A stretch of DNA of 64,000 nt from Candidatus Moraniibacteriota bacterium (GCA_963743885.1 CAVURJ010000002.1:36721-100720); one strand, 5' to 3'. Positions 26,230 to 29,665 are shown, counted from the first letter of the stretch. The notes: generated from the sequence alone by a model not told the origin. Numbers and translations: made by a program.

Positions 26230-27150
26230 ATGGCATCTGCACGAGACATCCGAAGGCGCATCAAAGGCGTGAAATCCACGGGTAAGATCACCCGAGCCAT
26301 GGAGATGATTTCGGCTGTCAAAATGCGCAAGGCAGTGCAGGCAGTACTGGCTATCCGTCCGTATGCGGAGAGTGCTATCGAGCTTTTGAAGCGGCTCAAG
26401 GTCGCTGTCGGAAGCGAGAAGCACCCGCTTCTTACGGTGCGGCCGATCAAGAAAGAGCTCTATGTGATCATCACTTCGAATCGTGGATTGTGCGGAGCGT
26501 TCAATGCACAGATTGCGAAGAAAGTGCGCCAGGCGCTCAAAGAAGATGCGGATCGCGAGAAATGTTTCATCACGATCGGTAAGAAGGGGGATGCGTCGGT
26601 CCGCCGATCAGGTGGCGATATCATCGCGTCGTTTCCGGATGTACTCGGAGCACCGAATGCTGAGACGATGCGTCCTATCGCGCGTGTCATCATGGATGAA
26701 TTCGCTTCAGGCCGCGTAGACCGTGTCGTCATGATCTATACCGACTATGTATCCGTGATGCTCCAGCAGGTGAAGGTGCGCGCGCTGCTTCCGGTCAGGC
26801 TCGAAGATACGCAGAAGGCGATGCATGAAATGCAACCAACGACTGACGACGGACGACTGATGACAGAAGAGGGGAAGGGGAAGATTCCGGCGGAGTATGC
26901 GATTGAACCGTCGCCCGCGACCGTGCTCGACCGGATGGTGCCGCGACTCATCGAGATGGAGCTCTATCATGCGATACTCGAGAGCAATGCATCCCAGGAA
27001 GCAGCCCGTATGATGGCGATGCGTAATGCGACCGATGCTGCCAAGGAGATGTCTGCTGATTTGACGCTCGCCTACAACCAGCTCCGCCAGCAGAAGATCA
27101 CGCAAGAGATCGCCGAGCTGTCGGCAGGTATGGCAGCTGTCTCGCGTTAG
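26230..27150 (+). CDS. atpG: F0F1 ATP synthase subunit gamma
   Basis: 'IRRRIKGVKSTGKITRAMEMISAVKMRKA' N-terminus and conserved C-terminal helix 'ITQEIAELSAG'. Confidence 0.85.
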   Translation: MASARDIRRRIKGVKSTGKITRAMEMISAVKMRKAVQAVLAIRPYAESAIELLKRLKVAVGSEKHPLLTVRPIKKELYVIITSNRGLCGAFNAQIAKKVRQALKEDADREKCFITIGKKGDASVRRSGGDIIASFPDVLGAPNAETMRPIARVIMDEFASGRVDRVVMIYTDYVSVMLQQVKVRALLPVRLEDTQKAMHEMQPTTDDGRLMTEEGKGKIPAEYAIEPSPATVLDRMVPRLIEMELYHAILESNASQEAARMMAMRNATDAAKEMSADLTLAYNQLRQQKITQEIAELSAGMAAVSR

Positions 27151-27220
27151 CGAGACCCTGAGCGAAGTCTGCGGAGTCGAAGGGTGATGGTGTTACAATA
27201 GGATTTCAGACTACAGTATC

Positions 27221-27745
27221 ATGAAGAAGACAGCAAAAAATCTGGTAGTGATTCCGAGTGAGCGCATCATCAAGCGTATTTTCTGGCTGCGTGATGAGAA
27301 GGTAATGCTGGATTCTGATTTGGCAGAAATGTATGAGGTAGAAACGAAAGTTTTCAATCAGGCCGTGAAACGCAATATCGATCGATTCCCGAAAGACTTT
27401 ATGTTTCAGCTTACCGTGCAAGAGTATTCAATCTTGAAGTCACAAATTGTGACCTCAAGTTGGGGAGGAAAAAGAAAACTCCCATATGCTTTTACTGAGC
27501 CGGGTGTGGCGATGCTTTCGAGCGTACTCAAGAGCAAGCGGGCAGTTGCAGTGAATATCCAGATTATCCGGACATTTGTCGAGCTGAGAAAGATGCTCGT
27601 AACACATGAGGCGCTTAGGAAGAAGATCGAAGCAATGGAGCAGAAATATGACAAGCGGTTCAGAGCGGTATTTGATGTATTGCGTCAGCTCCTGAAGGAA
27701 GAGACGGAGCCGAAGAAGAAGATAGGGTTTGCTGCGAAGAAGTGA
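27221..27745 (+). CDS. ORF6N-domain protein (KilA-N-related DNA-binding family), inserted in the atp operon
   Basis: 'EKVMLDSDLAEMYEVETKVFNQAVKRNIDRFPKDFMFQLT...SQIVTSSWGGKRKLPYAFTEPGVAMLSSVLKS' matches the ORF6N domain pattern. No good SD. Confidence 0.65.
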   Translation: MKKTAKNLVVIPSERIIKRIFWLRDEKVMLDSDLAEMYEVETKVFNQAVKRNIDRFPKDFMFQLTVQEYSILKSQIVTSSWGGKRKLPYAFTEPGVAMLSSVLKSKRAVAVNIQIIRTFVELRKMLVTHEALRKKIEAMEQKYDKRFRAVFDVLRQLLKEETEPKKKIGFAAKK

Positions 27746-27830
27746 AGCTGGAATTTTGAATCTGGAATCTTGGAGTTCAAAACCAAAATTCTAGATTCTA
27801 AATTCGAGATTCGGATTTAGGAAGTTGTTT
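27745..27830. repeat. AT-rich heptad tandem-repeat tract
   Basis: ggaattttgaatctggaatcttgg...aattctagattctaaattcgagattcggatttagg. 7-bp period, same unit family as 24527-24650. Confidence 0.55.
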
Positions 27831-27835
27831 GGAAA

Positions 27836-27878
27836 AAAGAAAAGCCCCGGCGCGGTTGCGACAGGGCAGGTGTTCGGA
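27836..27878 (-). terminator. Terminator module AAAAAAGAAAAGCCCCGGCGCGGTTG... (minus-strand orientation)
   Basis: On minus: GC-rich hairpin followed by TTTTCTTTTTT. A near-identical ~30-bp module recurs at 34205-34240. Confidence 0.5.
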
Positions 27879-27889
27879 TGATGAAGGCC

Positions 27890-28120
27890 TCAGTCGATGA
27901 CAATCACGAGATCGTTCGGCTTGATAATGCAGAAACCTCCTGTGCCACGAAGATACCCTGCATTGTAGCCGTCGTCATCGGTGGTGAGTTTCTGAAGGAG
28001 CGGGACGACCCCACCTCGCTCGAGATCTGCGATGCAGATGAACTTGGTATGGGAAGGAACCTCAGAAAAACGATGAGCCCTTCTGAAGGTAACTACGAGG
28101 TTGAAGTTAGTGAGTGGCAT
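27890..28120 (-). CDS. Hypothetical small protein, 76 aa (orphan, divergent from the operon)
   Basis: AGGAG 9 nt upstream of the ATG on minus. Shared terminator module downstream. No recognisable family. Confidence 0.45.
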   Translation of the reverse strand: MPLTNFNLVVTFRRAHRFSEVPSHTKFICIADLERGGVVPLLQKLTTDDDGYNAGYLRGTGGFCIIKPNDLVIVID

Positions 28121-28276
28121 GCTCGGCTCCTATATGCGTCTTGGGTTGGTAAGAGTGCGACTGCTCATACTGGTATAAAAACGAAAAAAAGTCAATCCCA
28201 GTTACATGCGGATATGTAACGGGACAAGTATCTCATAACGTAATTAATCAAGATTTTTCCTTAATCAAGTAACACT

Positions 28277-29665
28277 ATGGCGAATACAGGAAAGCTTATC
28301 CAGATCATCGGGCCGGTGGTGGACGTGGAGTTCGCCGAAGGCTCGGTCCTCCCGAAGGTGTACGATGCTCTCGAAATGAAGAACGGCGAAGAGAAGCTCG
28401 TGGCTGAGGTGCATCAGCACTTGGGCGGCAATCGCGTGCGTGCCGTGTCTATGGGCACGACGGACGGCCTCCGGCGTGGGACGGAAGTTGTCGCGACGGG
28501 TACTCCGATCTCGGTGCCGGTTGGTAAGGAAGTCTTGGGACGCATGTTCAATGTGCTTGGCGATGCCATCGATGGCAAGGAGAATGTCGTAGCGGTGAAG
28601 AGAAATTCGATCCATCGCAGTGCGCCAGCCTTTGATGAACAGTCGACCAAGGCGGAAGTTTTCGAGACGGGTATCAAGTCTGTTGACCTCATCTGTCCGT
28701 TCATGAAGGGCGGTAAAGTGGGTCTCTTTGGTGGTGCGGGTGTGGGCAAGACGGTCGTCATCCAGGAGCTCATCCGCAACATCGCATCGGAACACGGTGG
28801 TTACTCGGTATTCGCCGGTGTCGGCGAGCGTACTCGCGAGGGCAATGACCTCTATCATGAAATGAAAGACTCGGGCGTGCTCGACAAGACAGCGCTCGTG
28901 TTCGGTCAGATGAATGAGCCGCCGGGATCACGCCAGCGCGTGGCGCTTTCCGCGCTTACTATGGCGGAATCGTTCCGTGATGACGAGGGCAAAGACGTGC
29001 TTCTTTTCATCGATAATATTTTCCGTTTCACCCAGGCTGGTTCTGAGGTGTCAGCGCTTCTCGGCCGCATCCCGTCAGCGGTGGGGTATCAGCCGACCTT
29101 GGCTGAGGAGATGGGTGGTCTCCAAGAGCGTATCACATCGACTAACAAGGGCTCTATCACCTCCGTGCAGGCGGTGTATGTGCCGGCCGACGACCTCACT
29201 GACCCGGCGCCGGCGACGACCTTCGCTCACCTCGACTCGACGGTTGTGCTCAACCGCGCTCTGACCGAGATCGGCATCTATCCAGCCGTCGACCCGCTCG
29301 ATTCGAGCTCGACTATCCTCGATCCGCAAATTATCGGCGAGCGCCACTACGCCGTGGCTCGTGGCGTACAGAAGATCCTCCAGCGCTACAAAGACCTCCA
29401 GGACATTATTGCCATCCTTGGTATGGAAGAGTTGTCCGATGAGGATAAGCAGACCGTGGCGCGCGCTCGTAAGATCCAGAAGTATCTCTCGCAGCCGTTC
29501 TTCGTGGCAGAACAGTTCACTGGTAGTAAGGGCAAGTACGTGAAGCTTGAGGACACGATCTCTGGTTTTGAGCGCATCCTCTCGGGCGAGCTCGATGATA
29601 TCGCCGAGCAGGCGTTCTATATGAAGGGTTCGATCGAAGAAGTGATCGCGGAAGGACGCAAGTAA
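28277..29665 (+). CDS. atpD: F0F1 ATP synthase subunit beta
   Basis: '[19 protein letters not shown]' N-terminus, Walker A '[15 protein letters not shown]', 'DELSDED' DELSEED-like loop. Confidence 0.9.

Follow-up and report, generated by a model that had tools for sequence, protein, structure and literature searches.

The atpG-atpD spacer of a Candidatus Moraniibacteriota bacterium is a long-standing accessory slot within the ATP synthase operon, the slot is common to a Moranbacteria-type clade, and the finding is real. The DNA that we analyzed, hereafter the window, is a 64,000-nucleotide (nt) stretch (GCA_963743885.1 CAVURJ010000002.1:36721-100720), with positions counted from its first letter. 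The explanation that we favor, and that we hold to be reasonably probable as a whole, is that the slot has two independent tenants, one a stand-alone ORF6N (KilA-N-like) gene whose product would bind a palindrome in its own coding sequence and the other a convergent mini-cassette with an antisense open reading frame (ORF).

All eight genes of the F1Fo operon lie in the window on the plus strand in the canonical order atpBEFHAGDC, but atpG and atpD are 1126 nt apart, and the gap includes a convergent gene with its own terminator, so that the canonical contiguity of atpG and atpD in one transcription unit was not found. Between the two genes lie an ORF6N gene in the same orientation, a hairpin of AT-rich heptads, and an antisense gene of 76 amino acids (aa), and every element that the original prediction, made from the sequence alone, had described between atpG and atpD is present where it was placed (Table 1). 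The same prediction held that atpG is directly followed by atpD in virtually all bacteria. This agrees with 54 of 72 loci from other genomes, where the gap is shorter than 100 nt, but the rule is weaker in Patescibacteria, as gaps of 234-1096 nt are present at ten loci (L002, L005, L008, L010, L011, L025, L036, L038, L054, and L055), most of which bear the label Patescibacteria, and contain unrelated ORFs, such as a 264-aa membrane protein in L011 and 178-aa and 139-aa ORFs in L054. The atpG-atpD junction seems to be a general insertion hotspot in Patescibacteria.

A homologue search in a 5.8-billion-protein collection placed ORF6N relatives on long contigs (66-80% identity) between atpG and atpD, on the atp strand, in six lineages, represented by P0005 (loci L082/L083), P0008 (L084-L089), P0009 (L090-L093), P0023 (L174/L175), P0020 (L176), and P0052 (L177-L181). 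Counting the window, at least seven lineages have the atpG-ORF6N-atpD arrangement, with AtpG identities of 59-95% among them, and several of the ORF6N-bearing hosts carry the source labels Candidatus Moranbacteria or Moraniibacteriota. The assembly error that had been raised as a possible cause is excluded because many independent assemblies agree on this arrangement. One homologue, P0054 (67% identity), sits outside the atp operon, between ruvB and yebC-ruvC of another genome. Of eight close homologues tested (66-80% identity), seven are in the atpG-atpD spacer. More distant homologues (49-65% identity; tblastn) have different surroundings, with atpA, atpG, atpD, or atpC near none of the 80 among the matches listed, although one neighbor matches ATP-synt_A (atpB) in a Pfam neighbor census. 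The neighbors of these 80 fall into 88 Pfam families, mostly housekeeping, with dnaN occurring four times, and the ORF6N family thereby appears to behave as a solitary gene scattered over ordinary operons.

The closest relatives revealed that the two tenants are separable. L081, a metagenome contig that is 98%, 97%, and 92% identical to the window in AtpA, AtpD, and AtpG, respectively, has a 587-nt spacer that keeps the antisense gene and its terminator but lacks ORF6N. In the next relative, L001 (AtpD 90%), the atpG-atpD spacer is 55 nt long and has no ORF6N. Both of these ORF6N-less loci nest within the ORF6N-bearing clade in a tree of AtpG, AtpD, and AtpC, and the outgroups L002, L003, L004, and L046 have no ORF6N.

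These comparisons bear on the insertion that the original prediction had proposed. A recent one-off insertion of a phage or mobile fragment, which brought the ORF6N gene, the repeats, the terminator, and the antisense ORF together, would agree with the phage-type family of ORF6N, with its GC content below that of the neighboring genes, and with the near relatives L001 and L081 that are without it. The part of the proposal that stands is that the DNA is accessory, as it is missing from most bacteria, from L001 (ORF6N and cassette), and from L081 (ORF6N). However, it is not a single recent element, since its parts are independent of each other, L081 has the antisense gene and terminator without ORF6N, the arrangement recurs in at least seven diverged lineages, and synonymous sites are saturated between the window and L081, which means that nothing about it is recent. 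The original prediction had noted that an arrangement conserved across the lineage would be ancestral rather than inserted, and this is largely what the synteny comparison revealed. Furthermore, no transposase, integrase, terminal repeats, or target-site duplication was found among the window ORFs and repeats; the sole flanking inverted repeat has 10-nt arms with 90% complementarity, a length at which two-copy matches often arise by chance. On the same grounds, a transposon, insertion sequence, or miniature inverted-repeat transposable element was considered and rejected. We therefore regard a recent one-off insertion as very improbable. Unlike a stray insertion, a clade-wide accessory slot inside the atp operon is in our judgment the more interesting finding.

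While the slot has persisted, its ORF6N occupant has not followed its hosts. L084, L090, and L177 are 90-95% identical in AtpG and 92-97% in AtpD, yet their ORF6N proteins are only 65-74% identical, with the difference concentrated in residues 40-92 (49% identity between L084 and L090), and the middle segment of ORF6N is 89% identical between L090 and the more distant L176. The GC content of the ORF6N gene lies at 43-50% in all seven lineages vs 47-64% for the host atp genes (48-64% vs 39-87% at third codon positions), and in the window it is 45% vs 54-57% in the atp genes. The order of the tenants varies as well: ORF6N precedes the antisense cassette in the window, L082, L084, L176, and L177, the cassette precedes ORF6N in L090, and cassettes flank ORF6N on both sides in L174. 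Because the ORF6N alleles track neither host phylogeny nor host GC content, the slot is old and its tenant is turning over, with allelic replacement and occasional loss.

The 174-aa ORF6N protein matches its Pfam model with 119.1 bits against a cut-off of 27.8 (residues 19-102, model positions 2-86 of 86). An AlphaFold2 (AF2) model (predicted local distance difference test, pLDDT, 74) has the N-terminal ORF6N domain followed by a long C-terminal helix, residues 106-160, through which the protein probably dimerizes. Its PHROG matches are anti-repressor families, and Pfam and PHROGs together place it among ORF6N, Rha, and anti-repressor proteins. Fold comparison with BFVD, which sets a prediction against predictions, retrieved KilA-N, anti-repressor, and Bro-N models (best E = 6.8e-6, probability 1.00). 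In the PDB, fold matches were weak and winged-helix-like (e.g., Ski/Dachshund and MerR/BldC), none at E < 0.001, and no PDB chain has detectable sequence similarity to ORF6N. Neither Pfam nor the fold searches, which gave DNA-binding models only, found a nuclease domain or fold. The family is large, with at least 7,997 relatives at E <= 1e-10 in cells and phages, and 293 relatives were found in phage contigs; the earlier assignment to a phage and mobile-element family is thus upheld by Pfam, PHROG, and viral fold matches. The window gene resembles the KilA-N, Bro-N, and Rha anti-repressors in its hidden Markov model (HMM) match, its predicted fold, and the occurrence of relatives in phage contigs, but differs from them as a stand-alone cellular gene fixed between atpG and atpD. 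We found no description of a mechanism for ORF6N proteins in the searchable literature.

A defense role is suggested by PADLOC, in which the protein matches the anti-phage candidate PDC-S05 over nearly its full length (PDLC04856, E = 5.8e-58, model positions 6-175 of 177), with two additional PDC-S05 models also matching. According to a preprint (10.1101/2024.09.26.614923), phages T7 and T5 plated about 1000-fold and T4 about 10-fold less well on E. coli B with a PDC-S05 representative that is described as having a RhuM domain. The allelic hyperdiversity and horizontal turnover of ORF6N are typical of defense genes, but the window gene lies in an essential housekeeping operon and has no RhuM domain (Pfam). 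Since the tested member had RhuM and this subtype does not, an anti-phage role for the window ORF6N is only a lead.

An indication of what ORF6N may bind lies within its own gene, where a palindrome with 13-nt arms is centered on codon Q75. Counting a palindrome as kept when at least 10 arm positions match, we found it at the same codon, which encodes an invariant glutamine, in 80 of 91 distinct homologues from cellular contigs; synonymous-codon shuffles reached this threshold in 15 of 1820 cases, and the best palindromes elsewhere in the same genes averaged 7.3 matches. In an ungapped alignment of 88 distinct 35-mers with 12 pairs, 94.4% of the paired cells were Watson-Crick or G·U vs 79.7% in shuffles, a level that none of 500 shuffles attained. 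Double-sided changes were present in 163 cells vs 48 expected, with compensatory types in 8 of the 12 pairs, and registers slid along the alignment gave only 23-45% pairing. The amino acids encoded by the two arms change together (S…V, F…G, C…G, and S…A). Viral contigs keep the palindrome in 42 of 63 ORF6N genes, and the viral subset with the identical peptide NLKSQIVTSS retains only a 6-bp core, which shows that this peptide can be encoded without the palindrome. In the 64-kb window, no second copy with two or fewer mismatches was found.

On the other hand, the palindrome could be a nucleic-acid hairpin that acts as mRNA, antisense RNA, or single-stranded DNA in RNA processing or in recombination and mobility. 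Its long arms (up to 18 nt in homologues) and tiny loop (1-3 nt) would fit a hairpin, as would its strong predicted folds, which are stronger on the antisense strand (-18.2 kcal/mol, z = -5.7), where the window palindrome is predicted to pair without mismatch over a 12-bp stem that includes one G·U pair. Mismatches in the arms are also skewed on the sense strand (37 A·C vs 11 G·T), a skew that is unexplained if the palindrome acts solely as duplex DNA and that a bottom-strand hairpin or antisense RNA would fit. Yet Rfam covers neither the spacer nor the palindrome at threshold, and its best score, 26 bits vs a threshold of 67.5 bits, is miRNA-like and falls on the AT hairpin, with nothing on the palindrome. 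A hairpin does not predict that a residue encoded 70-80 nt upstream should covary with one base pair of the palindrome, and this is what we observed.

When 120 protein columns were compared with 12 pairs over 142 distinct records, corrected mutual information was highest between residue 47, which lies in the predicted recognition helix, and base pair 4 of the palindrome, counted from its center, and this signal exceeds that of the residues encoded by the palindrome itself. The pairing rule is obeyed in 135 of 141 records, with glutamine accompanying A·T in 95, arginine accompanying C·G in 22, lysine accompanying C·G in 9, and glutamate accompanying G·C in 9. The distance of codon 47 from the palindrome means that no coding linkage connects the two. 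Moreover, the pairings agree with the usual side-chain and base preferences, in which glutamine favors adenine, arginine or lysine favors guanine, and glutamate favors cytosine, which also counts against the hairpin explanation. On a tree built without residue 47 and residues 71-81, we counted 31 changes of residue 47, 31 of pair 4, and 35 of the combined state. Sequences of different classes are up to 76-83% identical elsewhere, the classes occur in varied helix backgrounds, and alleles of switched specificity (Q, R/K, or E at residue 47) replace one another at this locus irrespective of host phylogeny. The allele in the window is of the Q type and has A·T at pair 4, and its palindrome is the sole cognate site in the 64 kb.

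Together, these findings reveal two of the features sought in a repressor-operator module, namely a palindrome conserved with compensatory changes and covariation between an amino acid and a base pair. Because the palindrome is conserved and residue 47 covaries with pair 4, the ORF6N protein probably binds its own coding DNA. The hairpin and protein-binding readings of the palindrome are compatible with each other; as the explanation of the locus, we consider the hairpin unlikely. An intragenic cognate palindrome with such a code between residue 47 and pair 4 was not found described in the searchable literature.

Tandem ORF6N arrays of two or three genes occur at L152:225-2289 and, around 3550-4500, in L238, L240, L244, and L251. 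The copies in L152 combine E with G·C, L with T·A, and R with C·G, and four viral contigs have a Q with A·T copy beside an R with C·G copy. In L149, both tandem copies are Q with A·T, unlike the mostly differing tandem copies elsewhere. This pattern suggests that co-resident ORF6N copies are kept orthogonal.

The self-directed site also bears on two further explanations of why ORF6N resides in this operon. Free-standing homing endonuclease genes lie between conserved genes in T4-like phages, and ORF6N shares with them its intergenic position between two highly conserved genes, its patchy distribution among close relatives, alleles that are incongruent with the host tree, and a composition different from that of the host. 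However, a free-standing homing-type selfish gene aimed at the atpG-atpD junction would be at odds with the protein, which has only KilA-N, anti-repressor, and winged-helix-like DNA-binding models and no nuclease, and with the site, as the sole recognizable target lies inside ORF6N itself. We consider this explanation even less probable than a recent insertion.

Alternatively, ORF6N may have been domesticated in the clade as a dedicated regulator of ATP synthase, for instance as a throttle on atpD-atpC. ORF6N keeps its position in seven lineages, and in L090 and L174 the gene stands directly behind an atpD-type leader and immediately upstream of atpD, so that a roadblock within ORF6N would lower atpDC transcription there. 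Against such a dedicated role, ORF6N is lost in L081 and L001, no second cognate site was found near atpD, the close homologue P0054 stands between ruvB and yebC, and the distant homologues adjoin 88 gene families. In addition, the specificity residue switches in concert with the palindrome of the same gene, so that what is conserved as a target is the ORF6N gene itself. We judge domestication to be rather unlikely, if still worth weighing.

The second tenant is a gene in its own right. At the same antisense position, L081 has a 73-aa ORF that is 78% identical to the 76-aa protein, and the two ORFs differ by in-frame indels of 3 and 6 nt with dN 0.11 and dS 0.38 (ratio 0.29; NG86), while the overlapping plus-strand ORF (113 aa) has two stop codons in L081. 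Given this dN/dS ratio, the in-frame indels, and the broken ORF on the opposite strand, we read the minus-strand ORF as a real gene under purifying selection. HMMER found one convincing homologue of the 76-aa protein among 1.8 billion representatives, namely the L081 orthologue, and the AF2 model has a pLDDT of 43, which is too low for use. The 76-aa protein weakly resembles two units of a repeat of about 33 residues (SEIPDVSKFITDSDVEKKGYL…) that is present in six copies in the 836-aa protein P0123 (whole-library E = 6.6e-6), and it may be derived from a fragment of a repeat protein.

The gene is framed by regulatory modules that recur elsewhere with different ORFs. On the minus strand, its terminator folds at -15.9 kcal/mol (z = -2.9) and is followed by UUUUCUUUUUU; read on the plus strand, the same sequence has z = -0.25 and no U-tail, which points to a terminator that acts on the minus strand only. 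The terminator module is also found in L081, L090, L174 (twice), and the window itself (34204-34240), where its core recurs at 34211-34229 with one mismatch (0.01 matches expected by chance), as the original prediction had recognized. Similar A-tract terminators at 1968 and 16473 indicate that part of the resemblance is a general style of the lineage; the stem identity of the two cassette terminators is specific. At the other end, the motif GAAAAAGTCAAT occurs in the window only twice, at 28185 and 34698-34709. Across lineages, the frame consists of a -35 TTGACT in AAAAAGTCAAT, a leader with GGTTGGTAAGAGT, and the terminator TTGGAAAAAAGAAAAGCCCCGGCGCGGTTGCGAC. The promoter module, which in relatives is TTGACT-17-TATAAT, TATCAT, or TAAAAT, stands upstream of unrelated antisense ORFs in L082, L084, L090, L174 (twice), and L176, and these encode hydrophobic proteins of 45-87 aa in L084, L090, L174, and L176 and a soluble 80-aa protein in L082.

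A second mini-cassette of this kind, with a 119-aa ORF, lies between leuS and a HAD-family gene of the window; its terminator (34240-34204) folds at -19.9 kcal/mol, and the cassette is missing from L081, where the leuS-HAD gap is 20 nt. The common promoter and terminator modules bear out the earlier suggestion that both orphans belong to the same kind of element, whereas the proposed search for toxin/antitoxin or anti-defense families gave nothing, as neither the 76-aa nor the 119-aa orphan has a match in Pfam, PADLOC, PHROG, or NCBIfam. By its modular organization, we interpret the antisense gene as a separate promoter-ORF-terminator mini-cassette that is independent of ORF6N.

This independence argues against ORF6N and the antisense ORF forming a two-gene toxin-antitoxin or defense module. 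ORF6N and a small ORF are adjacent in six lineages, and several of the small ORFs are hydrophobic and toxin-like, as such a module would have it; however, the small ORFs are mutually unrelated, their position relative to ORF6N varies (before it, after it, or both), L081 and the leuS-HAD junction have one in the absence of ORF6N, and none has a PADLOC, Pfam, or PHROG match. We give this explanation almost no credence. A type II toxin-antitoxin pair was likewise rejected, as the antisense small ORFs are unrelated and variable in position and L081 is without ORF6N.

The layout of the slot raises the question of how the genes around it are expressed. No consensus sigma-70 promoter was called by a promoter scan in the atpG-ORF6N spacer (27151-27220), and the corresponding spacers in relatives range from 42-53 nt (L176 and L177) up to 537 nt; the short spacers suggest that ORF6N is co-transcribed with atpG. 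The AT-rich heptad repeats that follow the ORF6N stop fold into a hairpin of -27.8 kcal/mol (z = -3.7), and homologous tracts follow atpG or ORF6N in L081, L082, L084, L090, L174, and L176. This tract is possibly the 3' end, a stabilizer, or a weak terminator of an atpB-G-ORF6N transcript. Heptad repeats of the GATTTTA / GAATCTG type were seen after atpG or ORF6N stops in all clade lineages (for example, L081 10340-10400; L084 4820-4900 and 5529-5560; and L090 5529-5609), with a T-run next to them in several, and the hairpins may represent an uncommon kind of 3' end or terminator that is characteristic of these genomes.

The ORF6N gene and the antisense gene point toward each other, with the AT hairpin and the one-directional terminator back to back at their 3' ends. 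On its other side, the antisense gene is divergent from atpD, and the region between the two is 156 nt long. The leader motif (…ATTTTCC…AATCAAG…ATG) precedes atpD in the window, L081, and L084, and stands before ORF6N in L090 and the upstream L174 cassette; before atpD, this conserved leader may be a divergent promoter or UP element. The earlier observation that atpD has no convincing promoter holds, as the scan found no consensus sigma-70 promoter upstream of atpD and reading 28121-28276 by eye gave poor candidates only. The atpD and atpC genes (28277-30196, plus strand) probably form a separate transcription unit, and read-through from the atpG side into atpD is possible because the antisense terminator does not act on the plus strand. 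Because L081 shares this layout except for ORF6N, the split of the operon predates the difference in ORF6N presence.

Altogether, we propose that ORF6N would be transcribed as the last gene of an atpB-G unit, and that helix 42-52 of an ORF6N dimer would read the 27-bp palindrome in its own gene, with residue 47 touching pair 4 of the half-sites. Bound within its transcribed gene, the protein would be a roadblock that limits both its own level and read-through, in whatever operon hosts it. An operator that travels with the ORF would explain how a gene without a promoter can persist in an operon that is essential and highly expressed, and the switched alleles would fit selection for orthogonal "immunity types" and the candidacy of PDC-S05 as an anti-phage system. 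Because the ORF6N unit and the antisense cassette converge, the atp operon would be split into atpBEFHAG-ORF6N and atpDC, and transcription of atpDC would start in the 156-nt divergent region, come from upstream through the one-directional antisense terminator, or combine the two. A further possibility, which we find doubtful, is that ORF6N works as a valve, in which the bound protein shuts off synthesis of the F1 beta and epsilon subunits or excludes phages that carry a cognate ORF6N gene, with orthogonal alleles. If true, this would be an energy-linked or immunity-type defense new to description.

Several observations weigh against the self-binding, two-tenant explanation. The roadblock role is deduced from the position of the site alone, and the TGnTACAAT sequence at 27191-27199 could be a promoter of ORF6N's own. 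Fourfold-site identity between the window and L081 is 58-62% in atpA, atpG, and atpD and 46% in atpC, which is saturated, so that horizontal replacement and fast vertical evolution are not cleanly separable and the events are not datable; the tree on which independent switches were counted is likewise built from short, saturated sequences. Six of the seven ORF6N-bearing lineages were recruited by searching with ORF6N. The mismatch skew and the better fold of the antisense strand described above also count here, as do the RhuM domain of the protective PDC-S05 member and the setting of the locus, which is not a defense island but is flanked by atpG and atpD.

Table 1. Features of the ATP synthase locus and of the second mini-cassette in the window.
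Feature	Position	Strand	Remarks
atpB	22268-23083	+	followed by atpE, atpF, and atpH
atpA	24648-26147	+	
atpG, F1 gamma subunit	26230-27150	+	last canonical gene before the spacer; Pfam ATP-synt PF00231, E = 1.9e-87
atpG-ORF6N spacer	27151-27220	+	70 nt
CCCT...AGGG hairpin-type element	27156-27184		in atpG-ORF6N spacer
extended -10-like TGnTACAAT	27191-27199		in atpG-ORF6N spacer
stand-alone ORF6N (KilA-N-like) gene	27221-27745	+	174 aa; Pfam PF10543
predicted recognition helix, codons 42-52 (TKVFNQAVKRN)	27344-27376	+	AF2 helix at residues 42-51, confident
codon 47 (CAG, Gln)	27359-27361	+	
intragenic palindrome CTTGAAGTCACAA-A-TTGTGACCTCAAG	27433-27459	no strand	inverted repeat, 13-nt arms; centered on codon Q75
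AT-rich heptad repeats as inverted arrays	27744-27817	+	directly after ORF6N stop; Tandem Repeats Finder, period 7
intrinsic terminator of antisense gene	27833-27867	-	hairpin 27844-27867; U-tract 27833-27843 (A-run on + strand)
antisense orphan gene	27890-28120	-	76 aa, soluble; AGGAG six nt before ATG
5' region of antisense cassette	28121-28199	-	
Shine-Dalgarno AGGAG	28127-28131	-	
conserved leader GGTTGGTAAGAGT	28144-28156	-	
-35 TTGACT	28190-28195	-	within motif AAAAAAGTCAAT
atpD leader (…GTAATTAATCAAGATTTTTCCTTAATCAAG…ATG)	28200-28276	+	
atpD	28277-29665	+	Pfam match
atpC	29747-30196	+	Pfam match
second mini-cassette, between leuS and HAD-family gene	34200-34712	-	
ORF of second cassette	34263-34622	-	119 aa, N-terminal membrane anchor
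promoter of second cassette, TTGACT-17-TACCAT	34708-34680	-	

Several other features of the window and its relatives were observed. Short hairpin elements (GTCATTCCGAGC…GAGGAATC / CCTGAGCGAAG…CGAAGGG) occur in clade spacers in both orientations, at window 27156-27184, L081 9845-9885 and 10310-10345, L084 4905-4945, L090 4535-4565, and L082 4910-4990, and look like a family of small repeated palindromic elements. In L176 (1-4958), no atpA was called between atpH and atpG; this interval instead contains three unannotated ORFs and a 401-aa DUF6973 protein, which points to further disruption of the L176 atp operon. L084 carries a diversity-generating retroelement at 8173-10531 (also L085 and L087), with a bAvd-like accessory gene and a reverse transcriptase; in this P0008 lineage, the retroelement lies about 700 nt downstream of atpC, beside a 262-aa candidate target protein. 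Downstream of the operon in the window, the leucyl-tRNA synthetase (31239-34145, plus strand, 968 aa) has an inserted NUDIX domain at residues 412-505 (33.3 bits vs a cut-off of 21.1). The orthologue in L082 (1009 aa) has a weak NUDIX match, and no such match was seen in the orthologues of L081 (825 aa) and L174 (833 aa), which are shorter by about 140 aa.

Precedents exist for parts of the proposed ORF6N module. In ParB/Spo0J, parS lies within the spo0J gene itself, and lac O2 is an intragenic roadblock operator; by analogy, ORF6N would likewise be a dimeric DNA-binding protein (the dimer being predicted) with a palindromic site in coding sequence, but there is no homology, and its site lies in the middle of a one-gene module and switches specificity with the protein. 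In the immunity regions of lambdoid phages, repressor and operator co-diversify, and ORF6N resembles them in that matched changes of helix and palindrome make discrete types and that co-resident copies differ. Unlike these regions, ORF6N combines protein and operator in one ORF, with no promoter involved and no lysogeny context.

An atp operon arrangement with ORF6N was not found described in the searchable literature. Compared with the canonical operon, the split is clade-wide, and other Patescibacteria have unrelated inserts at the same junction. A highly conserved operon that is stably split in a clade of ultra-small Patescibacteria bears on how accessory and defense genes are accommodated in streamlined genomes. 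For the ORF6N family, the palindrome and the residue 47 rule provide a concrete hypothesis that specifies a target, a helix, and a way of switching specificity. An operator inside its own ORF would let a promoter-less gene carry its regulation wherever it lands, and this may be general for single-gene mobile modules.

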